DNA of 10,081 nucleotides, from positions 1 through 10,081 of the IMG/VR virus record IMGVR_UViG_2663763286_000006. One strand, written 5' to 3'. Source of the DNA: a virus (taxonomy: Duplodnaviria; Heunggongvirae; Uroviricota; Caudoviricetes). Each line of letters starts with the position of its first letter. Positions within the stretch are counted from its first letter, which is position 1. The notes under the pieces are model-generated. The model saw only the letters and a list, made by a program, of their open reading frames with translations. It had not been told where the DNA came from and searched no databases. Made by a program: the position numbers and the translations under genes. Positions 1-10,081 of this stretch are shown here, one piece after another.

Positions 1-2
1 TA

Positions 3-119
3 ACGTGGGTGGACTGGTATAACAATCGACGATTGCTGGAAAGGCTGGGCCATATTCCTCCGGCAGAAGCAGAAAAAGCTTATTATGCTTCCATCGGAAA
101 TAATGATCTGGCAGCCTGA
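3..119 (+). CDS. IS3-family transposase OrfB, C-terminal fragment (…TWVDWYNNRRLLERLGHIPPAEAEKAYYASIGNNDLAA*)
   Basis: Open frame from the window edge to TGA at 117-119. The C-terminal tail is typical of IS3-family DDE transposases and lies 42 bp upstream of the IS terminus. Confidence 0.75.
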   Translation, partial: TWVDWYNNRRLLERLGHIPPAEAEKAYYASIGNNDLAA

Positions 120-136
120 GTTCACAGATAAAATAC

Positions 137-161
137 TCTCCAGGAAACCCGGGGCGGTTCA
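137..161. repeat. IS right terminal inverted repeat (tctccaggaaacccggggcggttca; reverse complement TGAACCGCCCCGGGTTTCCTGGAGA)
   Basis: Matches the repeat at 9701-9725 (TGAACCGCCCCGGAAATCCTGGAGA) at 22 of 25 positions; begins with the TGA terminus typical of IS3-family ends. Confidence 0.8.
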
Positions 162-680
162 GGCTGGCATATTTCCTGTTGCCTTCATGGCCTCCAAAAT
201 AACCAGAACGCCATCTCGCCCAACCACCTCAGCGATAACCTCGGTGTTGTCGCCAACAACATCGCAGAATGCCTGAACTGCCTTACGAGCCAGCTCATTC
301 TCCACTGCCAGCGCCGTGCGATTACCCTCCAGCTCTGCAATGCGCTGTTTTGCGGCATCCAGTTCAATCGACAATTTTTCCAACTGCTCTTGATGCTTCT
401 TGTATTCCTGATATGCGTGCCAAGACTGACCTTTGCGCACACTATCAGTGATATCAGTAATCTGTTCTGGTGTTAGCGTGGTCAGTGGCTGTGATGGGAA
501 AATAAGCACTTTCCCGGAATCCCAATCAAAACCAGCGTGAATTGACTGAACCTCAACTGAAGGTGTTGAACCAATGCTGCCAGGCGAATGAACAACGATC
601 GTTACATTCATATCGCGACGATGGCTGTGGTTGTTGGACAAAATACGATTCACCAACTCAGAAAATTTGGAAAATTTCAT
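159..680 (-). CDS. Prophage hypothetical protein with C-terminal coiled-coil (173 aa as read); 3' end probably truncated by the IS insertion
   Basis: ORF MKFSKFSELVNRIL… with a heptad-like segment (QEQLEKLSIELDAAKQRIAELEGNRTALAVENELARK). Its stop codon TGA (159-161) is the terminal TGA of the IS itself. The start overlaps the upstream gene stop in an ATGA arrangement. Confidence 0.5.
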   Translation of the reverse strand: MKFSKFSELVNRILSNNHSHRRDMNVTIVVHSPGSIGSTPSVEVQSIHAGFDWDSGKVLIFPSQPLTTLTPEQITDITDSVRKGQSWHAYQEYKKHQEQLEKLSIELDAAKQRIAELEGNRTALAVENELARKAVQAFCDVVGDNTEVIAEVVGRDGVLVILEAMKATGNMPA

Positions 681-967
681 GCTGATTCCCCTTTCTCTGC
701 TCTCTCCTGTCGGAACATCACTATCATCAGGTCGCCTTTTGTCGCTATCCTGGCTGTTGTACCTGGTTCAATGCGGCTAAGCTCAAATGCGTCATAGAAC
801 GCTTCTAATGCCTTCTGGCGTAGTTCCTGTTTGCGCCGTTTTTTCCACTGTTTTAGGAAAATGGAACCCAGCCATCGCCATGTACGGGACATGATGTAAA
901 GCCAACCGAGAAGTGCCAGACCGGTATTTAGGAGCGTATCGATCGTTATTGTCGTGTCGATATTCAC
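677..967 (-). CDS. Small putative membrane protein (96 aa, GTG start)
   Basis: A GTG at 967 overlaps the upstream stop (GTGA) and is preceded by AAGGAAG at about 6 nt. Hydrophobic segment LLNTGLALLGWLYIM followed by a basic stretch KQWKKRRKQ. The annotated ATG at 1000 has no Shine-Dalgarno sequence and would overlap the upstream gene by 36 nt. Confidence 0.45.
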   Translation of the reverse strand: MNIDTTITIDTLLNTGLALLGWLYIMSRTWRWLGSIFLKQWKKRRKQELRQKALEAFYDAFELSRIEPGTTARIATKGDLMIVMFRQERAEKGESA

Positions 968-1830
968 TGGCTGCTTCCTTTGCGAATCTGTTCCGCCCAT
1001 TCTTCAAGGGATTTCTCCGCATATTCACCAGACAGGCCATCAATCGGATGCGCTTCATTAGCCAACTCTTCTTTCGCTGACAAAATCATGCGTGTAACGT
1101 CGAAAACTTCACGCAAAGACTTATTGATAAATCCGTGATTGAACGCAGCAGCAAGACGGCTGGCGGTATAGTTAATCCCCTCGTTGCGTGCTTCCGCACG
1201 TACTTCAGCAAGGAAAGCATCGGTGGCTGGGGTTTCGACATTAGGTCGAAGCTCATAATCACAAACTCTTTCAATCCATGGTGATACTCTGTCGCATTTC
1301 CTCTTCTTGCGTTCACCGACCTTGGTTGCCTGCTGAATAATTACCCCCCAGCAAATGCTTTCGACCTCTTCGCTCCATCCATCGCAAGCATCACCTCTAT
1401 AGTCGTCAATTGCAGCCTCAGCAGCAGCGATAGCCTCCTCAGCAGTTTTGTGACACTCGAAACTAAATTCAGAGCCATATGAGAAATACATAGCCCCGGC
1501 CTTAAGCCCCGCATTCTCCGCCACCAGCGCCGCGAGATTAGTCTCAAGCTCTGCAATTCGACACATAGCATCAATATTTGTGTCCTCCAGGCGCTTAATT
1601 TCACCAAGCAGCTCCAGTGCAACCTTTGGGTTGAACGCGGCAACATAACGAGCGTTGTTCTCTGCATTTTTCTGTCCATCAAAGCCGGTCCATTTGATAA
1701 CGTCTTCACATCGTTCATCACCGGGCGTGTGCACCGCATAAGTACCAGTATCTGTCGAAATAAATGCGACCCATTCGTCTGGTGTTGCCTTTTCTGCCGC
1801 CTCACGCAGTACCTGATAGTCAATTGTCAT
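964..1830 (-). CDS. Ead/Ea22-like prophage protein (288 aa)
   Basis: N-terminus MTIDYQVLREAAEKATPDEW… and a central coiled-coil (LELLGEIKRLEDTNIDAMCRIAELETNLAALVAENAGLKA) resemble Ea22-like proteins of lambdoid early-left regions (from memory). Start chosen at the ATG that overlaps the upstream stop (ATGA), with AAGGA 8 nt upstream. Confidence 0.55.
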   Translation of the reverse strand: MTIDYQVLREAAEKATPDEWVAFISTDTGTYAVHTPGDERCEDVIKWTGFDGQKNAENNARYVAAFNPKVALELLGEIKRLEDTNIDAMCRIAELETNLAALVAENAGLKAGAMYFSYGSEFSFECHKTAEEAIAAAEAAIDDYRGDACDGWSEEVESICWGVIIQQATKVGERKKRKCDRVSPWIERVCDYELRPNVETPATDAFLAEVRAEARNEGINYTASRLAAAFNHGFINKSLREVFDVTRMILSAKEELANEAHPIDGLSGEYAEKSLEEWAEQIRKGSSQ

Positions 1831-2471
1831 TCTCGCCATCCTTCACAGTTGTAATCACTACAGCCTTCAAAATCATATGGGCTGTACTGCCAGGTTATTT
1901 TTCCGCAATGCGGACAATTCCAACGCACCTTCCCGCTTCGCGACTTCTTTCTTCTGTTTTGCTTTTTCAACCAGTCAGGCATGACCAAACCTGCGCCCTG
2001 AACCATTGTTCTGCGGTTAAAGTTATTGATATTGAACGTCCGGCGCTTTGCTGCATCAGCAATGGAAAATGGCAACCAAACTATTCCTGGTTCGTTTTTG
2101 TTGGCGACGCTAAAGATGGTCGCTTTACTGAAGTCATCTGTTGGCAATCCACCGTGTTGAAGCCAGTAAACATCGTTGCCGTTCCAGCTACCTTTTTTGT
2201 AGGCCACATACGCAGTGCAATCTGACTCAATCAGGCTTTCTGTAGGGATGTACTGGCAATCAACGTGCCACACAGCCATTGCATCCACGCTATCAGCGCA
2301 AACAGGCTGATCGATATCTCGTCCACAATTCCAGGCTTTTTGGGCTGCTTCCAGCGTGTAAACATGAGCGCGATCGATATCAGAACTGTAACCATTGCCG
2401 TTATGGCAATGGAATGAGGCGTTATTACCCACAGTTTCACGCAAGCACATCATGTAAAAGCGGTTATTCAC
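1827..2471 (-). CDS. Hypothetical protein with C-terminal Cys-rich zinc-ribbon-like motif (…WNCPHCGKITWQYSPYDFEGCSDYNCEGW)
   Basis: 214-codon ORF with a GTG start at 2471 preceded by GGGAGG at 6 nt; the stop overlaps the next start (ATGA). Function not recognised. Confidence 0.5.
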   Translation of the reverse strand: MNNRFYMMCLRETVGNNASFHCHNGNGYSSDIDRAHVYTLEAAQKAWNCGRDIDQPVCADSVDAMAVWHVDCQYIPTESLIESDCTAYVAYKKGSWNGNDVYWLQHGGLPTDDFSKATIFSVANKNEPGIVWLPFSIADAAKRRTFNINNFNRRTMVQGAGLVMPDWLKKQNRRKKSRSGKVRWNCPHCGKITWQYSPYDFEGCSDYNCEGWRE

Positions 2472-2679
2472 TGGATGCCTCCCAGCAAATTTGTCTTATA
2501 TAAGAACTGTTAACGCGCTTTACTTTCCCGTCGAACTCCAGTTTCTTTAGACGACGCAAAACGTATGCCGTTTTGAGTGTGCGATATTTATCCCTAAGCC
2601 AGTTGGTCACGACGTAAGTCATACAGCGCCCGTGTTCTTCCAACACCCGAACTATTTCTTCGTCGGTTGGCTTGCTCAT
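2464..2679 (-). CDS. Small basic protein (71 aa), possible DNA-binding protein
   Basis: ATG at 2679 preceded by AAGGAG at 7 nt; overlaps the upstream stop (ATGA). Basic and helix-rich (RRLKKLEFDGKVKR). A winged-helix fold is only a guess. Confidence 0.5.
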   Translation of the reverse strand: MSKPTDEEIVRVLEEHGRCMTYVVTNWLRDKYRTLKTAYVLRRLKKLEFDGKVKRVNSSYIRQICWEASSE

Positions 2680-2897
2680 TTTGTCGCTCCTTCAGCTTTC
2701 TCTACTTTCGCTGCCATGATTTCCAGCTTTTGTGCTGCCGATGCCGCTAACCTGTGAAATTCTTCATCTGTTTCAACTGGAATTGGTACAAACCTGACAC
2801 CAATTTGAGCAAGGCTATGCGCCATTTCGAGACTTGCTCTTAACTCTGCTGGGGATGCTTTATTCAGGCCGACTTCCTCACAAATAACTGATTGCAT
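2676..2897 (-). CDS. Hypothetical small protein (73 aa)
   Basis: ORF MQSVICEEVGLNKASPAELRASLEMAHSLAQIGVRFVPIPV…; sits 10 nt downstream of the preceding stop and is co-directional with its neighbours. Confidence 0.45.
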   Translation of the reverse strand: MQSVICEEVGLNKASPAELRASLEMAHSLAQIGVRFVPIPVETDEEFHRLAASAAQKLEIMAAKVEKAEGATK

Positions 2898-2906
2898 ACG
2901 CTCGCC

Positions 2907-3632
2907 CTACTGAATACGCTCAAACTCGATTACCCAAACCCAGGGATTAGCACTCCAGCTTTCTTCGCCGTAGATGGATTCCCACAGGCGCTGGAACGCA
3001 ACCTTGGCCATTGCGAAATCCCCCTTGGGAGTAAGGAATGTTCCCGGGTGATCAGGAAGCAAACTTCCAGCAGGCGGAACGCCCTCATCCCTTGCATCGC
3101 ATTCGCTGATATCGTTCAACCGCTCAACGCGCACGTTGGTAATTTCCACCAGGATGCGTGATGCCCATCGCGGCATGTGAATTGATGGACGCCACCCACC
3201 ATCAAACTTTTCATTCACAGTGTGAGGTTTCCAGTCGGCATCATCGGGTATCGACCATAAACCGTAATCACCAGGCTTTTGCTCACAACTGGCCCGATAA
3301 ATCCTTGCTGCGTTCTTCTCATCGCCACGACAAAGGTTGTCGTTCCAGTCCACACTGCAACCATCTTCATTGCCTAATATCGCCCATGTTTCACGAACCC
3401 AAATTCGATCGCCGACGATACCAAAGGGGCAATTGAAAACACTGCTTACACCATCAGCCCCGTACCACTGAAAACCTGCACCAATTTTTCTAACCATCAC
3501 CGGTGCTTCTGGACCAACTTCCGCAGGCTGATTTTTCATTATCCGCCGCGTCTGCGTTTTCCTTCCTTCGAGGATGGCCCGGACCATCTCATCGTTGAAA
3601 ATCATGCCGCGCTCTTTCACTTCGCCTTTCAT
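2907..3632 (-). CDS. Hypothetical phage protein, possibly ASCH/PUA-like fold (GRKTQTRR motif)
   Basis: Long ORF with an N-terminal …MIFNDEMVRAILEGRKTQTRRI… segment resembling the GxKxxExR-type ASCH signature (weak, from memory). Start placed at the third in-frame ATG (3632), which has AGGGGGA immediately upstream and lies 10 nt after the stop of the small peptide ORF. ATGs at 3668, 3650 and 3605 are alternatives. Confidence 0.5.
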   Translation of the reverse strand: MKGEVKERGMIFNDEMVRAILEGRKTQTRRIMKNQPAEVGPEAPVMVRKIGAGFQWYGADGVSSVFNCPFGIVGDRIWVRETWAILGNEDGCSVDWNDNLCRGDEKNAARIYRASCEQKPGDYGLWSIPDDADWKPHTVNEKFDGGWRPSIHMPRWASRILVEITNVRVERLNDISECDARDEGVPPAGSLLPDHPGTFLTPKGDFAMAKVAFQRLWESIYGEESWSANPWVWVIEFERIQ

Positions 3633-3642
3633 GCATCCCCCT

Positions 3643-3729
3643 TTACCCATGCGCGACGATGCCGCCAAAAGTGATAGAGAACAGCCAGAAATAGATCGCG
3701 GCCATAATGATTTTGAATGCCGTGTTCAT
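3643..3729 (-). CDS. Unannotated small hydrophobic peptide, 28 aa (MNTAFKIIMAAIYFWLFSITFGGIVAHG)
   Basis: Not in the supplied ORF track (too short). ATG at 3729 preceded by AGGAG with an 8-nt spacer. The peptide has a single predicted transmembrane-like core, and its stop lies 10 nt upstream of the next gene start. Confidence 0.35.
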   Translation of the reverse strand: MNTAFKIIMAAIYFWLFSITFGGIVAHG

Positions 3730-3757
3730 ATTTTCAGCTCCTGTGATTGATTGGATA

Positions 3758-3788
3758 CATGCCGCGCCTTGCGGCATGTTTTTATTTT
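3758..3788 (+). terminator. Intrinsic terminator-like hairpin oriented for the + strand (CATGCCGC-gcctt-GCGGCATG followed by TTTTTATTTT)
   Basis: 8-bp GC-rich stem, 5-nt loop and a T-rich tract on the + strand only. It is convergent with the minus-strand operon and lies immediately upstream of the small peptide gene's RBS. Confidence 0.5.
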
Positions 3789-3815
3789 CACTTCCCCTGT
3801 CTTAAAAATCAATAT

Positions 3816-3828
3816 TTATTAGAGCAAT
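3816..3828 (-). repeat. 13-mer junction motif ATTGCTCTAATAA (minus-strand orientation), copy A
   Basis: Exact copy; it overlaps the tandem stop codons (TAA TAA) of the HAD phosphatase gene. Confidence 0.6.
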
Positions 3829-4334
3829 TGTTGTTGATAAAGAAGCGCATTTTCATACTCCCTGACCATTAATGTAAGTACGCCATGACTCCTGAACACA
3901 CGCGCCACTTCAATCTTATCTTCCAGCGCGAACGCAATTTTACTTAGACCAATTTTCTTCAGGAGATCAATCTTTGCTGGACCGTCATTTCTGTCATCGG
4001 TGGCAGGACGCATAGATAGCAAAGGCTCAGCCCCGTTTGTTACGTACTTCCGCAGCCAGGCTCGTGTTTTATCCCTTGCGATCTCACAGCGCCCGGTTAC
4101 AAACCAGACCGTGTAAACGTTAAATAACTGGCGCACCATATCAATAACTGGAGTGATGGGAGCATCAGTGTCACAGGCAAGGTTAAACTCGTTCCAGTGC
4201 TCTGTTAATGCACCTTTGCCAGGTGGTGGAAGTAAATGCAGCCTGTCTTCCGTTGCCTCTGATATCGTCCCATCAATATCTACTATGACGATGTACGGAC
4301 GTTCCTGGTGTGCGTGTTTATTGAAAATACTCAA
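3819..4334 (-). CDS. HAD-superfamily phosphatase (polynucleotide-kinase 3'-phosphatase-like domain)
   Basis: HAD motif I IVIVDIDGT (DxDGT) near the N-terminus, motif II-like VWFVTGR, and a downstream acidic motif ATDDRND. TTG start at 4334 preceded by AGGAGG. Confidence 0.6.
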   Translation of the reverse strand: MSIFNKHAHQERPYIVIVDIDGTISEATEDRLHLLPPPGKGALTEHWNEFNLACDTDAPITPVIDMVRQLFNVYTVWFVTGRCEIARDKTRAWLRKYVTNGAEPLLSMRPATDDRNDGPAKIDLLKKIGLSKIAFALEDKIEVARVFRSHGVLTLMVREYENALLYQQQLL

Positions 4335-4352
4335 ATGCCCTCCTCATTGGAC

Positions 4353-4386
4353 GAAAAAAATGCTGGTGGGCGCACTCCACCAGCAT
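4353..4386 (-). terminator. Rho-independent terminator (minus strand): 10-bp stem ATGCTGGTGG/CCACCAGCAT, 7-nt loop, then U7
   Basis: Perfect 10-bp inverted repeat at 4360-4386 followed on the minus strand by TTTTTTT (4353-4359); located between the stop of the 420-aa gene (4407) and the HAD gene start (4334). Confidence 0.65.
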
Positions 4387-4406
4387 TAAAAGTGACACTG
4401 TAACTA

Positions 4407-5669
4407 TCAGCGAACGTAAATAGTGCCGCCGTTCTCTTTTTCCCATGCATCGCTACGTGCATAGCAAACATCGAGAAGTCTTCTTGCCGCAGTTTCCTCT
4501 AAACCCAATTCGACAACCAACTGCTCATGACGGCGGGTAACCACATCAAACAGGGTATGCAGCCCTTTAGTTGCCAGATCATCAATGAATTCCGGTTCGA
4601 ACGGCAGCTCTGCCTCTGCCAACATAACCTCTTGCGCCCACTCAACTCGACGGACCAGTTCCGGGCGGCGGCTTTCCATCTCTTTACAGATCAATTCATG
4701 GAAGAACTCTACCCAACCTTCCGGCTGGAACTCGCGGAAAATGGCCAACGGCTGGAAGTTTGGCATCAACCATTCGTTGATCCGGATATCAATGGCATAG
4801 CCCATGTCGCAGCAGAACTGATAAGCAAAGTCCAGCTTAGAAACGATATAAGGACGCTCGTTATTGAACTCTTTAGGCGATGAGATCCCATAAGCCAGGA
4901 GGCGCGGGAAGAAGGAGATTTGCCCTAACGTCGGATGAAGTTTTCTTGCAGGGAAACGGCGCTCAGTAATGCCATACATTTCCTTCTTGAGCGTCGCAAA
5001 TTTGGCATTCTCATTAACCAGCGCGGTAACCTCTGCTTTTTTATTAGCAAATGCCACGCGCGCTTCGCTTGCATCTTTAATAGTTTTTTTGAGCTGTTGG
5101 TTAAGGTCGGCGACCTGCTTACGCAGTTCCTGTCGCTCGCTTTTAGCTTTGTTATAGCGTTTCTCAAGGTTAAAAGGATCAAGTTTCATGATCTCTTTAT
5201 ATTGAGATTTTAGCGTTGAAATCTGTGAGTTCCGCAGTTCAACCATCGCGGTCATTTCATTGAGTTTTGTTTCCAGCTCAATGCTTATACGTTCGGCATT
5301 ATCAGCACGCTGGTTGGCGTCATGCGTCGCATCGTCGATCGCGTCCTGTTGCTGGCGTTTCAAATGTTCAATTTGCAGCTGAAGCTCTTCAATTTCTTTA
5401 CCCTTCAGACCGAGATCCAACTGCATATTTTCAGCTGCATCTACCAGGGAGTTATGGCTATCAGCTTCTGCGTTATAAACATCAATAAGCTGTGCGTGAA
5501 GCATCTCCGCTGACTGAACCGCATTATCAAAAAAACGCGCTGTGAGGTCATCACAACTAACGCGGCGTTGCGCGGCCCGGATGTTCTGGATAATGGCCGG
5601 GATACCGGCATTCAGGACGTCAGGGATAGATACATTTTCGATTGATTGGTTTTGTGCTGAAGTGCTCAT
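4407..5669 (-). CDS. Large hypothetical protein (420 aa): N-terminal coiled-coil (about residues 60-230), C-terminal globular domain of unknown function
   Basis: Long ORF with strong heptad periodicity and K/E/Q richness (…LQLQIEHLKRQQQDAIDD…ELRKQVADLNQQLKK…), then a Trp/Phe/Cys-containing C-terminal domain. Its start lies 1 nt after the upstream stop (TGAAATG). Confidence 0.6.
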   Translation of the reverse strand: MSTSAQNQSIENVSIPDVLNAGIPAIIQNIRAAQRRVSCDDLTARFFDNAVQSAEMLHAQLIDVYNAEADSHNSLVDAAENMQLDLGLKGKEIEELQLQIEHLKRQQQDAIDDATHDANQRADNAERISIELETKLNEMTAMVELRNSQISTLKSQYKEIMKLDPFNLEKRYNKAKSERQELRKQVADLNQQLKKTIKDASEARVAFANKKAEVTALVNENAKFATLKKEMYGITERRFPARKLHPTLGQISFFPRLLAYGISSPKEFNNERPYIVSKLDFAYQFCCDMGYAIDIRINEWLMPNFQPLAIFREFQPEGWVEFFHELICKEMESRRPELVRRVEWAQEVMLAEAELPFEPEFIDDLATKGLHTLFDVVTRRHEQLVVELGLEETAARRLLDVCYARSDAWEKENGGTIYVR

Positions 5670-5670
5670 T

Positions 5671-5889
5671 TCAAAGTTCCGTATTAGCTTGTGCTTCGGT
5701 CATTTTTCCTAAGTATGAAGGAGGAAGGACTACGCAATTTGTATCCAGTCCCTCACCTATGGCAGCCTGTAAAATTCTGGCTAAGGTGAGTCTCTTGTTG
5801 CGATACCTGGTGATGACATGCCTGATACCGCCGGTCGGCGTAACAAAGGCGATCAGCCAGTAGTGATATTTCCGTCGGAATGGCCACAT
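5671..5889 (-). CDS. Hypothetical small protein (72 aa)
   Basis: ATG at 5889 preceded by AAGGTG at 4 nt; the stop directly abuts the start of the 420-aa gene (coupled pair). Confidence 0.45.
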   Translation of the reverse strand: MWPFRRKYHYWLIAFVTPTGGIRHVITRYRNKRLTLARILQAAIGEGLDTNCVVLPPSYLGKMTEAQANTEL

Positions 5890-5903
5890 AGTGCACCTTG
5901 TAG

Positions 5904-5916
5904 ATTGCTCTAATAA
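5904..5916 (+). repeat. 13-mer junction motif ATTGCTCTAATAA (+ orientation), copy B
   Basis: Exact copy; forms a perfect 13-bp inverted repeat with copy C, enclosing the terminator hairpin. Confidence 0.6.
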
Positions 5917-5940
5917 AAAACGTGATGAGTGTACATCACG
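5915..5940 (-). terminator. Rho-independent terminator (minus strand): stem CGTGATG/CATCACG, 6-nt loop, then U6
   Basis: 7-bp inverted repeat at 5921-5940 followed on the minus strand by TTTTTT (5915-5920); lies between the GT-A-like gene stop (5971) and the 72-aa gene start (5889). Confidence 0.55.
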
Positions 5941-5956
5941 CTTTAAAAATATGGAA

Positions 5957-5969
5957 TTATTAGAGCAAT
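5957..5969 (-). repeat. 13-mer junction motif ATTGCTCTAATAA (minus-strand orientation), copy C
   Basis: Exact copy starting 1 nt after the stop codon of the 5971..6672 gene. Confidence 0.6.
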
Positions 5970-5970
5970 A

Positions 5971-6672
5971 TTATTCTGATTCTCGCTCAAAAAATGAGCT
6001 GACAAGGGGAAGCCAATCCTCTGACACTTCGCGAGGTCGCGGTTTGCCGTGGAAAAAGATTATTCGGCAGTCTTTTGGTAATGCCCCATTCCCCCTGGAG
6101 TAACGCGCGCTCGCATATTTTGAACCAGGTTCCACAACATCGGCCTTGTAACTTACAAACCATCCTGGATACAGATCCTGAAATGCTGGTGTATCATCGC
6201 CCATAACCTTCCGTAAGAACCCCTGATCACCCCAGCACTCAGTAGTGACACAACGAGAAATCCAACCTTCCGGATCTTGCCAGAATGAACTCCAGATATG
6301 CGCTTTAACACTATTTGGTATCCACAGGGCACCGCTGCCACGATATTGTGGATGGTAAAAATCCCTAAGCATGGTGAAGCTGGTTGGTGGATGCTCTAGG
6401 ATTGGGCGTATATCACCGGCAATAACCGTGTCCAAATCCAGATAGAACAGATCATCGGTTATATCCGGTCGGAACAACTCGATTTTCGCCCACCAGCCAC
6501 GGCACTTTTGCCACTGGTTGATCAATGGGACAACTTTGACGCCAGGTACATGTAAACGCTTCAGGTCTGTCAGGCAAATAATTTCATAGCCTTTTGGCAG
6601 TTGATTAACCAGCCACTGCACATCGGAAGCGTTATAGTCACCACCAGAGCGAAAAACTAAAGCAATCTTCAT
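5971..6672 (-). CDS. Hypothetical protein, possibly GT-A-fold nucleotide-sugar transferase-like (DxD-like LDLD motif)
   Basis: 233-aa ORF whose start overlaps the phosphatase stop (ATGA). It contains …[27 protein letters not shown]…, reminiscent of the sugar-binding/DxD region of GT-A glycosyltransferases. This is a weak, memory-based resemblance. Confidence 0.45.
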
Positions 6673-7346
6673 GCTGCACCATCACCTTTCACTTTCATCA
6701 ATGTCAGGTTTCCGCAAAATACGGCACCAGTGTCGATATACTGCTGATTCCAGAATGTCTTCGGGCTTTTCACCGGAGTGTGACCAAAGATAAAACGATC
6801 TGCGCCCGAAATTTCGCCACCAATATCATCCATCGAATCACTGATACGCTCGCGCGCCCAGACAACGTTGAAAAGCGGCACCTCCTTACCGAATTGGTAT
6901 TCATTATCCGGATAGTCGGCATGGGCTATAACGATAGTTTCTTGCCCGGTGTTCAACTCAATGATATAGGGCAGACGCTTTACCAGCTCCACCAGCGCCC
7001 AGGCTAATATTTCCTGATCAGTGTCCAGCATGAAGAACCATTGTCCGCCATTCATTAGCCAGTTATTCACGTTGCCATCTGGACTTAACGCATCAATCAT
7101 CAGCCGCTCATGGTTCCCCATCACTGCCCTGAACCAGGGCATCTGCAATAGTTCCAGACATTCGACATTTTCAGTACCGCGATCGATAAGGTCGCCGACC
7201 GATATCAGTAAATCCTGCGCCGGGTCAAAATCCACACGATGGAGTTCGGACATCAGTCTGGTGTAGCAACCATGCAGATCACCAACAACCCAGACATTCC
7301 TGTATTTGGTACCGTCGATACGGTGATAAATTGTGGGTGCCATCAT
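6669..7346 (-). CDS. Serine/threonine protein phosphatase, calcineurin-like metallophosphatase (phage lambda PPase / PrpA-PrpB-like)
   Basis: Canonical signature GDLHG … GDLIDRG … GNHE (DXH-GDXXDRG-GNHE). Length and N-terminus ([28 protein letters not shown]) align with lambda PPase as I recall it. Start chosen at the ATG overlapping the upstream stop (ATGA) rather than the ORF-track ATG at 7361. Confidence 0.85.
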
Positions 7347-7957
7347 GTATTCTTCAGCCATTCTTTAAGAGTCATCTGCGGAATACCTCCCATTTTCCCG
7401 CATGAAACAACGTCAATCCGTTCACGCGCAGACTGGAATAACAAAGGCAGGTGACTTAGATTTTTTGGCGTGCCGCCGGAGTGAACGCGTGGTTCTTGTG
7501 TAGCGTCAACGCCCACCAGGGCGACATGTTTGAATCCGATATGGAAAGCCAGGTTCAGAGCGCCATATGCACTATTGCCGCTGGCAATTTCATTCTCATC
7601 TTCGCAAAGTCCGAAATGTGCGGACCAGCGCCACGCCCACCACTCGGGAGAATGCTCCATGCCACGTTCAGCCACACGACGGAAGCACAGAACGCCGTCT
7701 CTGACTTCACGTTCTTTAACATCGGGTAGTGCCATGCAATAACAAACACCACGGCGACGGCGGCCACGACCAACGCGCCGCATATTGTCTGGCGATGGAT
7801 CAAGTGTGAAAAAATAAGAAGCGCGGTTCAGCCAGTCGATGGCCCCATTGACCGCTATAATCGGCACTCCGCGCGGCGCAACAAAGTTTGCGGCGCTTGG
7901 GCCACTGCCGACGATAATAACGCGATCACTGCCTCTAAATTTATTCTTGGGAAACAT
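7343..7957 (-). CDS. Hypothetical protein with N-terminal GSGPS nucleotide-binding-like motif (Cst-II/GT42-like or MptE/DUF115-like fold?), paralog 1
   Basis: Contains [10 protein letters not shown]…IIAVNG and later [16 protein letters not shown], which resemble the IIAGNGPSL and GYKEIYLSGID motifs of Campylobacter Cst-II-type sialyltransferases and DUF115 proteins (from memory). Clearly paralogous to the next gene upstream. Confidence 0.55.
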
Positions 7958-8484
7958 TGAATTGCACTGCTCCTACTTGCATTCAAAATATGTAAATCTG
8001 CGTGTTTTTTGCGGGTATCCAGGAACTGCTGTTGCCATTTTGAAATAGAAACCTGCGTTGGATTCCGTAGGGCTTGAGGGTGCGCGCCATGCCAATGAAG
8101 GCCGTTTTGCAGAGAACAGTCATAGCCGACTAATACCACTACTTCAGCCCCTGATTCAGCAGCCAGACTGATAGCCTGCGCGCCGCTATTTACCCCTTCC
8201 GCCGGTCCACAATATCGCCTGTACTCCAACGAAAATGATTTCGCCGCCGCCAGGTTGGCTGTCACTTTGCGGAATCTCCCTCCCGGTATGGTGGATCCGT
8301 ATTGCTTCCACCATGACAAATCACCGGCGTATAAGGCATAAATGTCATCGAACATCTGCCAGGAATTGTTAACCGCGATGATTGAACAGCCAGTTTTTTC
8401 TATAGCAGCACAGTCCTCACGAGTGAGTGACGGACCGCTACCGACACAAAAAACAGTCCTAGTCGCCCTGCGTGGTATGTTCAT
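7855..8484 (-). CDS. Hypothetical protein with GSGPS motif, paralog 2 (start placed at internal ATG by homology with paralog 1)
   Basis: Contains TVFCVGSGPS…IIAVNN and VVVLVGYDCS, matching paralog 1 motif for motif. Its C-terminal 34 codons overlap the start of paralog 1 by 103 nt. The ORF-track start at 8517 is an alternative. Confidence 0.5.
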   Translation of the reverse strand: MNIPRRATRTVFCVGSGPSLTREDCAAIEKTGCSIIAVNNSWQMFDDIYALYAGDLSWWKQYGSTIPGGRFRKVTANLAAAKSFSLEYRRYCGPAEGVNSGAQAISLAAESGAEVVVLVGYDCSLQNGLHWHGAHPQALRNPTQVSISKWQQQFLDTRKKHADLHILNASRSSAIQCFPRINLEAVIALLSSAVAQAPQTLLRRAECRL

Positions 8485-8680
8485 TCTCAGCTGCAAATTC
8501 AGCCTCCAGGCGAGCATTCATTTCAGCGATTACAGGGTCCACTACAGCATCTGTTTCCTGTTCATTACGCGGCATGATCGATGCCAGCGATTCATAATTA
8601 GCCTTGGATGACACGATTATTCTCCCGATGTTAATGTGCGCTATATCAAATGGCTCATATGTACTAATTAATTTATTATT

Positions 8681-9259
8681 TTAAGCAACATACAACCACT
8701 TGTCGCCGTTCAATACATGCTCAATAGCCTCACCCTTTTTAAGGCTTATGTATTCCAGGATGGCGGTTATCGCTTGTTCTGCACCATACGCAAGAACGAC
8801 GTAGTAACCTTCCTCTCTAAGCCTGCGCATCCAGGCGATCTGCTCTTTCGTCGGGGCTTTACCATTTGGTTCTTTAAGCTCAATTCGCATGCCGTGATAA
8901 ATACCGCATGCTTTATCGAGACTCATGTCCGGATAACCTTTTTTCTGCCCTTCAGCCTTCATTTTCCCGGCGGTTGCTTTTGAACGTTTCCATCCGTTAG
9001 GCGTTGCATGCAACAGCTCATAGATGTCAGGGTGCTTGCGTTCGAAGTAATCAAAAATGAAAACCTGCTCGAAGTGCTCGCAATTTCCGTCGCGCAGGTC
9101 TGGGTTCTTTGCCAGTGCTGCAAGTGCCTTCGCATGTGGAGAAACTTCTTTTACCGGCGCAAGCGATAAGAATGGATCCTTTTTGGTTTTTGGCCTGGAC
9201 CGCCCCTTATTTCGACGCTCACTAAAAGCCTGAAACTCTTCCTCAGTAAAGCGCAACAT
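8681..9259 (-). CDS. VRR-NUC domain (PD-(D/E)xK-type) nuclease-like protein
   Basis: C-terminal half has GYPDM … IELKEPNGKAPTKEQIAWMRRLREEGYYVVLAYG, matching the VRR-NUC pattern (PD … ExK … Q … G-hydrophobic). ATG start at 9259 lies 2 nt after the upstream stop. Confidence 0.6.
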   Translation of the reverse strand: MLRFTEEEFQAFSERRNKGRSRPKTKKDPFLSLAPVKEVSPHAKALAALAKNPDLRDGNCEHFEQVFIFDYFERKHPDIYELLHATPNGWKRSKATAGKMKAEGQKKGYPDMSLDKACGIYHGMRIELKEPNGKAPTKEQIAWMRRLREEGYYVVLAYGAEQAITAILEYISLKKGEAIEHVLNGDKWLYVA

Positions 9260-9261
9260 AA

Positions 9262-9507
9262 TCAGTCAAATCCTGCCGGTCGCATGCCATATTTACGCTG
9301 TTTTGCGGCCTGCTCTTCCCTGTGCCATTGCGCACATTCAGCGTCACAATTAATGCCTGATTCAATCGATTCATTGCAGTAACGACACTTCCCTGTAAAT
9401 ACCTGGCTCACGACCTGTGCCTGCTTTCTGATGTTATCGATGGCCATGTCTTTGAGAGCTTCTAACTGATTCATGCTCAGCTCTGCATCATCAACACGTT
9501 CTGCCAA
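9262..9507 (-). CDS. TraR/DksA-family C4 zinc-finger protein (lambda Orf73-like), TTG start
   Basis: CxxC…(17)…CxxxC arrangement (CRYCNESIESGINCDAEC) in a roughly 80-aa protein with an N-terminal helical segment. TTG at 9507 is preceded by GAGGAAA at 5 nt; an internal ATG 11 codons in is an alternative start. Confidence 0.5.
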   Translation of the reverse strand: MAERVDDAELSMNQLEALKDMAIDNIRKQAQVVSQVFTGKCRYCNESIESGINCDAECAQWHREEQAAKQRKYGMRPAGFD

Positions 9508-9564
9508 TTTTGTTTCCTCGTGAAGAACCTACTTAAGGGCAGAATGATACATTTCACATTCAAA

Positions 9565-9577
9565 ATTGCACTAATAA
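9565..9577 (+). repeat. Variant copy of the 13-mer motif (ATTGCACTAATAA, 1 mismatch), + orientation
   Basis: 12 of 13 identity to the motif at 5904-5916, located in the AT-rich region upstream of the first gene of the minus-strand gene array. Confidence 0.4.
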
Positions 9578-9700
9578 TTTTCTTTTATTGAGTTAAATAT
9601 TCAACAAATGACTAGCGGTAGAATCACCATCATCTATTTCTGGCAGGCTGACTATGGCTACATCAATCACTACAACCCAAAGCACCCGGCAATATCCTCT

Positions 9701-9725
9701 TGAACCGCCCCGGAAATCCTGGAGA
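9701..9725. repeat. IS left terminal inverted repeat (TGAACCGCCCCGGAAATCCTGGAGA)
   Basis: Inverted match to 137-161. Confidence 0.8.
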
Positions 9726-9754
9726 CTAAACTCCCTGAGAAAGAGGTAAACAGG

Positions 9755-10081
9755 ATGACTAAAAATACTCGTTTTTCCCCCGAGGTCCGTCAACGGGCAG
9801 TTCGTATGGTTCTGGAAAGTCAGGGCGAATATGACTCACAATGGGCGGCAATTTGTTCCATTGCCCCAAAGATTGGCTGTACACCAGAGACTCTGCGTGT
9901 GTGGGTTCGTCAGCATGAGCGGGATACCGGGAGTGGTGATGGTGGACTCACCACCGCTGAACGTCAGCGTCTGAAAGAGCTGGAACGTGAAAATCGTGAA
10001 CTGCGCCGCAGTAACGATATCCTTCGCCAGGCTTCCGCTTATTTTGCGAAGGCGGAGTTCGACCGCCTCTGGAAAAAATGA
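9755..10081 (+). CDS. IS3-family transposase OrfA (108 aa; helix-turn-helix and leucine-zipper region)
   Basis: [57 protein letters not shown]… followed by a leucine-zipper-like [30 protein letters not shown]. Ends in an A-rich stretch (GGAAAAAATGA) where the programmed -1 frameshift into orfB is expected in this family. Confidence 0.85.

Follow-up and report, generated by a model that had tools for sequence, protein, structure and literature searches.

The window analysed here, a stretch of 10,081 nucleotides, begins with the right end and finishes with the left end of an insertion sequence, and this raises the question of whether the 9.5-kb segment between them is a mobile unit, the remnant of a deleted prophage, or part of an otherwise ordinary replicon. 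We find that the window equals, in reverse complement, the whole of draft contig JXWD01000082.1 (assembly GCA_000948825.1); the IS pieces are therefore the ends of that contig, and the outer ends of the elements, together with their outer flanks, lie off it. We consider the window to be, with a probability of roughly 0.85, one complete short-read contig that derives from an E. coli phage-plasmid of the P1 type, with both of its ends inside IS629. A contig that ends in IS629 is an ordinary situation and does not represent a new kind of mobile unit.

Both terminal pieces match one 1310-bp IS629 copy in the chromosome of E. coli O157:H7 PA20 (L008) at 100% identity, over 161/161 and 381/381 positions; this copy bears the 3-bp target duplication GAT. 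Thus, the earlier note was correct that one type of element, in the + orientation on both sides, occupies 1-161 and the sequence from 9701. The right piece is also identical at 381/381 positions to IS629 copies of O157:H7, while identity of both pieces to the IS1203 copies of O111 plasmids is 96-97%. Alignments to complete 1310-bp IS629/IS1203 copies stop exactly at the IS termini (1-161, end to end, and 9701-10081), where we found the 25-bp terminal inverted repeats TGAACCGCCCCGGAAATCCTGGAGA and TGAACCGCCCCGGGTTTCCTGGAGA; these are imperfect, begin TGAACCGCCCC, and agree at 22 of 25 positions.

IS629 is a member of the IS3 family, with the isoforms IS1203 and IS3411, and moves by a copy-out/paste-in process via a circular intermediate, creating a target duplication of 3-4 bp. 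It makes OrfA and, through -1 frameshifting, the OrfAB transposase, with a helix-turn-helix encoded by orfA and a DDE/rve domain by orfB. In the window, orfA encodes 108 amino acids with a Pfam match to HTH_Tnp_1, as in the O157:H7 element, and the contig ends at its stop codon; the last 38 codons of orfB alone are present, with the frameshift region and the rest of orfB beyond the contig. Identical complete IS629 copies have their transposase annotated with the programmed frameshift. In all, 542 of the 1310 nt are visible. The two IS/host junctions at the contig ends point to two IS629 copies, each visible by one terminus, and both copies are presumably complete.

The element is found at 15-39 places per O157:H7-type chromosome, among the chromosomes listed, and is known to be multicopy in such genomes (PMC3271280). 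The assembler would have halted inside IS629 at both ends because the element is a multicopy repeat. The contig reaches 161 nt into the IS at one end and 381 nt at the other; a fixed k-mer overlap would have given equal lengths, and the difference was counted against the account of a repeat-broken assembly.

Table 1. Features of the window, with strand and the evidence for each assignment
Feature	Position	Strand	Evidence or remarks
Last 161 nt of IS629	1-161	+	orfB 3' end 3-119; right inverted repeat 137-161; left contig end
Truncated Ea22-related accessory gene, 173 aa	159-680	-	Translation compared with L003:4785-5519 (intact, 244 aa)
Variable accessory module	677-2897	-	Pfam matches; collinear with EC23 plasmid p2
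DUF4752	677-1000	-	Accessory module; Pfam
Ead/Ea22-like	964-1839	-	Accessory module; Pfam
Two hypothetical genes	1827-2471, 2464-2679	-	Accessory module
DUF1382	2676-2897	-	Accessory module; Pfam
PmgT-like gene	2907-3668	-	First 232 codons 99.6% identical to P1 PmgT (tblastn), divergent after
P1 gene block pap to pmgL, P1 order	3819-9507	-	96-100% amino acid identity; P1 annotation
pap	3819-4334	-	P1 protein match
pmgS	4407-5669	-	P1 protein match
pmgR	5671-5889	-	P1 protein match
pmgQ	5971-6672	-	P1 protein match
ppp	6669-7361	-	P1 protein match
pmgP	7343-7957	-	P1 protein match
pmgO	7855-8517	-	P1 protein match
pmgN	8459-8614	-	P1 protein match
pmgM	8681-9259	-	P1 protein match
pmgL	9262-9507	-	P1 protein match
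Divergent pmgL/gene 26 control region	9508-9653		99.3% identical to P1 over 146 nt
Gene 26 (baseplate) 5' fragment, 46 nt (15 codons + 1 nt)	9654-9700	+	tblastn, gp26 residues 1-16
First 381 nt of IS629	9701-10081	+	Left inverted repeat 9701-9725; complete orfA 9755-10081; right contig end

The segment between the two IS pieces is part of a P1-type (Punavirus) phage-plasmid. The whole of it (162-9700, 9,539 nt) aligns in one collinear piece with the 97-kb plasmid p2 of E. coli EC23 at 98.9% identity. At least 80% of the window is covered by 78 genomes, and those listed are almost all plasmids of 86-110 kb; the phages P1, P7 and SJ46 match it at 98%. Between 2937 and 9700 the identity to P1 (NC_005856) is 98.4%, and eleven P1 proteins, pmgT through pmgL, find matches at 96-100% amino acid identity when searched against the window by tblastn. 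The order of these genes is that of P1, and Pfam matches among those from pap to pmgL include HAD_PNKP, Metallophos and VRR_NUC. The control region that precedes gene 26 is kept as well, with the C1 operator O26 at 9565-9581 and the late promoter LP26 from 9606, both exact matches as annotated in NC_005856. An Rfam scan of the window gave no match at the gathering score.

The window differs from P1 in its left part, where the Ea22/DUF4752/DUF1382 module (162-2936) replaces the 3' end of pmgT, pmgU and pmgV. This accessory module is missing from the reference P1, whose match begins at 2937, and a mosaic breakpoint lies near that position in the PmgT-like gene. A further difference, from P1 and EC23 plasmid p2 alike, is that IS629 interrupts the leftmost accessory gene as well as gene 26. 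The former, an Ea22-related gene that is annotated intact in EC23 plasmid p2, has lost its C-terminal 71 amino acids and now ends at a TGA stop that comes from the IS terminal TCA at 159-161; full-length homologues of 237-246 amino acids are common, and a search with the full-length 244-aa protein returned only full-length relatives among the matches listed.

The earlier note took the lack of integrase, regulatory and structural genes as a sign that neighbouring prophage genes had been deleted. This argument does not hold for 9.5 kb of a plasmid prophage of ∼95 kb. Lysogeny of the P1 type needs no integrase, and the gene order matches that of intact relatives, so the absence of these genes is no evidence of deletion. 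The genes repA, parAB, cre/lox and c1 and the structural genes are carried by the intact relatives and fall outside the 10-kb contig. An integrated lambdoid prophage that lacks its integrase was likewise rejected, the segment being P1-type plasmid DNA.

The order in which the two IS629 copies arrived can be read from a sister contig, BIED01000092.1 (GCA_005400765.1), which is 99.99% identical to the window over positions 1-9700 (one mismatch in 9,700 nt). The sister contig has the identical left IS629 junction, but it has no IS at 9700/9701 and its gene 26 is intact; instead, an inverted IS629 is found in gene 25, 585 nt beyond 9700. Because the sister contig has the left junction without the right one, the left and right insertions are separate events, in line with one of the two options in the earlier note, two independent insertions, and the left insertion, common to both strains, is the older. 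A protein of the sister contig carries the locus tag BvCmsB1661_02673.

Both junctions are specific to this lineage. In searches with 200-nt queries, no record among 5,426 complete genomes of E. coli spanned the left or the right junction, and this sets the two sites of insertion, one in gene 26 and one in an accessory gene of the P1-type plasmid, apart from those of the O157:H7 copies with which the IS pieces are otherwise identical. Scans of IMG/VR, the GTDB species representatives and JGI metagenomes for exact 28-mers of both junctions gave no match either, and the top hits in PLSDB contained the junctions in no other context. The bases that face the segment, GGC at 162-164 and TCT at 9698-9700, do differ, as had been pointed out, but the conclusion drawn from this mismatch does not follow. 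Each of these triplets is the inner flank of a different copy and pairs with a flank off the contig; the comparison is therefore uninformative about target duplications and excludes only one simple insertion into a 9.5-kb circle.

If each copy had entered by simple insertion, we would expect specific sequences beyond the contig. On the left, the DNA would read ...AAGCATCGGTGGC and then TGAACCGCCCC, with an intact duplication GGC and collinear P1 DNA; written as a contig, it would end ...CCAGGAAAGCATCGGTGGC/TGAACCGCCCC (GGC) and continue collinear with EC23 plasmid p2. On the right, ...GGGGCGGTTCA would be followed by TCTGTCGCGGTATGAC with an intact duplication TCT, or, as the start of a contig, ...GGGGCGGTTCA/TCTGTCGCGGTATGACGACC (TCT), again collinear with EC23 plasmid p2. 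Both L003 and the sister contig have gene 26 uninterrupted, with the sequence ...CCTCT/GTCGCGG. Reading through from the gene 26 fragment into the IS gives a peptide of 31 amino acids. Simple insertion also predicts an IS::gp26 fusion protein, and a search of the protein collection found no such fusion. We regard this as a weak negative, because fragments are usually merged into full-length protein clusters.

The same observations bear on a possible, though doubtful, refinement of the main reading, with which it is compatible: that the outer side of one or both IS copies abuts non-native DNA, as in a decayed or rearranged plasmid or a cointegrate with an IS629-bearing replicon. There is precedent in the complete P1-type plasmids p95NR1A and pE2855-2 of O111 strains (STEC), which share the plasmid backbone and have an IS629-group element, IS1203, in the late operon that starts at gene 26, with adjacent P1 late genes missing and no target duplication. 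In p95NR1A the IS1203 lies between gene 7 and rdgC (flanks GGC/AAC), and in pE2855-2 it follows a truncated tape-measure gene (TGG/GTT). The target duplication of IS629 is 3-4 bp, and matching duplications were reported at just 21 of 47 IS629 sites in O157:H7 genomes (PMC3271280); the missing fusion protein also fits this alternative. The O111 elements differ from those of the window in their positions, in being 96-97% rather than 100% identical, and in their adjacent deletions without target duplication, whereas the corresponding outer sides in the window are off the contig. Against deletion or rearrangement, collinearity with intact plasmids is perfect on the inner side of each junction, and the sister contig shows that the recent ancestor still had at least 585 nt past 9700, comprising the remainder of gene 26 and the beginning of gene 25.

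Two further arrangements were rejected, and we consider both highly improbable. One is the composite-transposon-like unit of the earlier note, in which the 9.5-kb pmg module would be a single translocatable unit moved by its two direct IS629 copies. The geometry, same-orientation IS629 ends on both sides, is its sole support; at both inner junctions the segment keeps the native gene order of P1, neither IS junction occurs in another context in the collections searched above, and the sister contig carries the left IS and not the right, so the copies were not acquired together. Moreover, elements of the IS3 family move as circles of one copy and rarely give rise to composites. What stands of the earlier proposal is that direct repeats could in principle recombine. 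The other arrangement is a single IS629 that joins both contig ends in a 10.8-kb circle (9,539 + 1,310 nt), such as an excised recombination product, for which the expected assembly is indeed a contig that carries the IS 3' end and the IS 5' end at its opposite ends, both in one orientation. Yet intact relatives of 86-110 kb have 9.5 kb between the two ends of the segment and the flanks differ, so that this is not a simple insertion into a circle; the segment has no replication gene by P1 annotation or Pfam; and beyond 9700 the sister contig carries on into genes 26 and 25.

Under the main reading, two separate insertions into a P1-type phage-plasmid, the two copies would have different consequences. 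The left IS629 lies in a non-essential Ea22-related accessory gene, while the right one, 46 nt into the baseplate gene, is expected to eliminate the baseplate protein and probably has a polar effect on the late operon 26-25-7-24. Provided that both effects hold, the element can persist as a plasmid and infectious particles are probably not made; with its gene 26 disrupted, the P1-type plasmid prophage of this strain is thus probably a defective phage kept as a plasmid. It is an unlikely but conceivable extension that IS629 repeatedly and preferentially knocks out the baseplate/tail late operon (26-25-7-24-sit) of P1-type phage-plasmids in IS629-rich E. coli, leading to a plasmid-only lifestyle, and that the direct pair in this strain could also excise or amplify the pmg module. 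If such knock-outs were recurrent and selected, they would provide a modest example of the domestication of a phage-plasmid. The importance of the locus beyond annotation is small, and its lesson is that, when a window has an IS piece at each end, these may simply mark where a draft contig stops and should not be taken as the borders of a bracketed mobile unit.

The two ends of the window are pieces of one insertion sequence, as an earlier note made from the sequence had proposed in describing a 9.5-kb prophage segment bracketed by same-orientation IS629-like copies. The left piece (1-161) terminates in ...CCCGGGGCGGTTCA and the right piece (9701-10081) opens with TGAACCGCCCCGG. By BLAST, these pieces correspond to the last 161 nt and the first 381 nt of the complete 1310-bp IS1203 copy on p95NR1A, in equal orientation, with 96-97% identity and with each alignment breaking off precisely at an IS terminus. 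An element that is multicopy in O157:H7-type strains, with 15-39 places per chromosome among those listed, matches the 381-nt piece with 100% identity. A 1310-bp copy in ycgR of O157:H7 PA20, flanked by the 3-bp target duplication GAT, matches both pieces perfectly (161/161 and 381/381); thus, the element is IS629 itself.

The window is also an entire draft contig. Exact-protein look-up with the 173-aa minus-strand ORF that spans the left junction (159-680) led to JXWD01000082.1 (10,081 nt, assembly GCA_000948825.1), which equals the window once reverse-complemented. The IS pieces are therefore the ends of that contig, and the outer IS ends, which the earlier note proposed to look for in the full contig, lie beyond it. 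Multicopy IS elements complicate short-read genome assembly (PMC4558774), and blocked assembly at this multicopy repeat is the simplest reason why both contig ends fall within IS629. The contig's last three bases (10079-10081) are the orfA stop codon; this end includes 381 nt of IS629 and the other end 161 nt, up to the IS right end. These unequal extents are unlike a fixed k-mer overlap.

A 97-kb plasmid from E. coli EC23 aligns without a break to the segment between the IS pieces (162-9700), at 98.9% identity. At least 80% of the window is covered in 78 complete genomes, almost all 86-110 kb plasmids among those listed, and matches in the phage collection are to P1, P7, SJ46 and other Punavirus genomes (about 98%). 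The proteins encoded in 2937-9700, with all genes on the minus strand, share 96-100% amino-acid identity with those of reference P1, and the genes are followed by a divergent control region (O26 and the late promoter LP26) that is 99.3% identical to P1. The accessory module in the remainder of the segment is common to many P1-type plasmids, but is missing from reference P1. Judged by these matches to P1-type plasmid DNA, the segment is part of a plasmid prophage and not of an integrated lambdoid prophage. The missing integrase and structural genes, previously read as a sign of deletion, do not indicate one, as the window is a 10-kb piece of a ~95-kb P1-type element. A PmgT-like ORF (2907-3668) is 99.6% identical to P1 PmgT over 232 residues and then divergent, and this divergence near 2937 marks a mosaic recombination breakpoint, past which lambdoid-type Ea22/DUF4752/DUF1382 genes replace the P1 pmgT 3' end, pmgU and pmgV. 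The pmgO and pmgP ORFs (7343-8517) share a ~100-nt overlap and each has only a sub-threshold MptE-like Pfam match; NCBI annotates the pmgP equivalent as a motility-associated-factor glycosyltransferase.

Features of the window and IS629-group insertion sites in the late operon of P1-type plasmids
Feature	Coordinates	Remark
Variable accessory module	162-2936	Ea22-like, DUF4752, DUF1382
PmgT (first 232 residues), Pap, PmgS, PmgR, PmgQ, Ppp	2937-9700, minus strand	P1 genes, by identity to P1
PmgP, PmgO, PmgN, PmgM, PmgL	minus strand	P1 genes (continued, also within 2937-9700), by identity to P1
C1 operator O26	9565-9581	exact match to P1
Site 1, gene 26, codon 16	9654-9700	window
Site 2, gene 26 3' end		at least four other assemblies (L010-L013)
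Site 3, gene 25		sister contig (L004)
Site 4, after gene 7	L001:16523-17832	p95NR1A
Site 5, tape-measure gene	L002:18022-19331	pE2855-2

Both IS copies interrupt genes. The left copy sits at the equivalent of 5000/5001 of an intact relative (L003), within a 244-aa Ea22-related gene that retains codons 1-173 and takes its stop codon from the IS terminal TCA, on the opposite strand. The right copy is located 46 nt into P1 gene 26, a baseplate gene that is first in the late operon 26-25-7-24 by P1 annotation, and read-through from gene 26 into the IS yields only a 31-residue peptide. This insertion would be expected to leave the prophage unable to build baseplates, and is predicted to be polar on the downstream tail genes.

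The two copies were acquired separately, one of the possibilities that the earlier note had raised. A sister contig, BIED01000092.1 (GCA_005400765.1; one protein named with locus tag BvCmsB1661_02673), differs from window 1-9700 by one mismatch and has an identical left junction, indicating that the left insertion is common by descent. The sister contig is uninterrupted at 9700 (...CCTCT/GTCGCGGTATGAC) and its gene 26 is intact, so the right copy was inserted in an event of its own. The simplest account is that the window lineage gained it later; it may instead have been lost from the sister lineage. The sister contig carries an inverted IS629 in gene 25, 585 nt beyond 9700, and extends 196 nt and ~500 nt into its own IS copies. 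Searches of 5,426 complete E. coli genomes, and of IMG/VR, GTDB representatives and JGI metagenomes, found neither IS/host junction.

The inner flanks, GGC (162-164) and TCT (9698-9700), are as previously reported, but the argument drawn from their mismatch holds only in part. Because the flanks differ and the segment ends lie 9.5 kb apart in intact relatives, a single simple insertion into a 9.5-kb circle is excluded. The mismatch has no bearing on target duplications, since these are inner flanks of two different copies; the partner of GGC is the 3 bp left of the left copy and that of TCT the 3 bp right of the right copy, both off the contig. A missing duplication is not unusual even for complete IS629 copies, since, of 47 IS629 sites in O157:H7 genomes, only 21 showed matching duplications of 3-4 bp (PMC3271280). 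The suggestion of a composite-transposon-like unit is without support, as is that of a circle: on the inner side of each junction the cargo keeps the native gene order of P1, the IS629-segment-IS629 unit was found in no other context, the two copies were not acquired together, and the segment contains no replication gene. Direct IS629 copies could lose the segment by homologous recombination, a property generic to any direct-repeat pair.

A deletion or rearrangement next to at least one of the window copies is possible, if rather unlikely. Two complete plasmids of P1 type, p95NR1A and pE2855-2, provide a precedent: their IS1203 copies in the late operon 26-25-7-24-sit lack target duplications and abut P1 DNA that is not the natural neighbour, and late genes are missing. 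Both sequences are finished, and the deletions are IS-associated; in p95NR1A, for example, there is a direct junction of gene 7 with rdgC. If the right copy were a simple insertion with a TCT duplication, we expected an ORF from the IS right end in frame with gp26 residues 16-125; this IS::gp26 fusion was not found in the protein collection, a weak negative since fragments usually merge into full-length-protein clusters.

Among the sequences compared, IS629-group insertions fell at five independent sites of the late operon that runs from gene 26 to sit in P1-type plasmids. A gp26 protein (P0122) whose C-terminal tail, VNRPGNPGD, is a translation of the IS629 left end is found on six contigs. 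The recurrence may reflect selection for plasmid-only derivatives or recurrent virion-gene inactivation, or simply IS load. P1-type phage-plasmids, IS629 and draft contigs broken at IS copies are all familiar, and what is new is confined to the two specific insertion sites. The case is an ordinary one overall, with the late-operon recurrence as one mild lead. In the P0122 assemblies (L010:3413-6333, L011:4825-6333), the IS629-type copy beside gene 26 is itself apparently interrupted after a 159-aa orfB fragment by a gene for a group II intron-type reverse transcriptase (RVT_1 and GIIM, ~505 aa).
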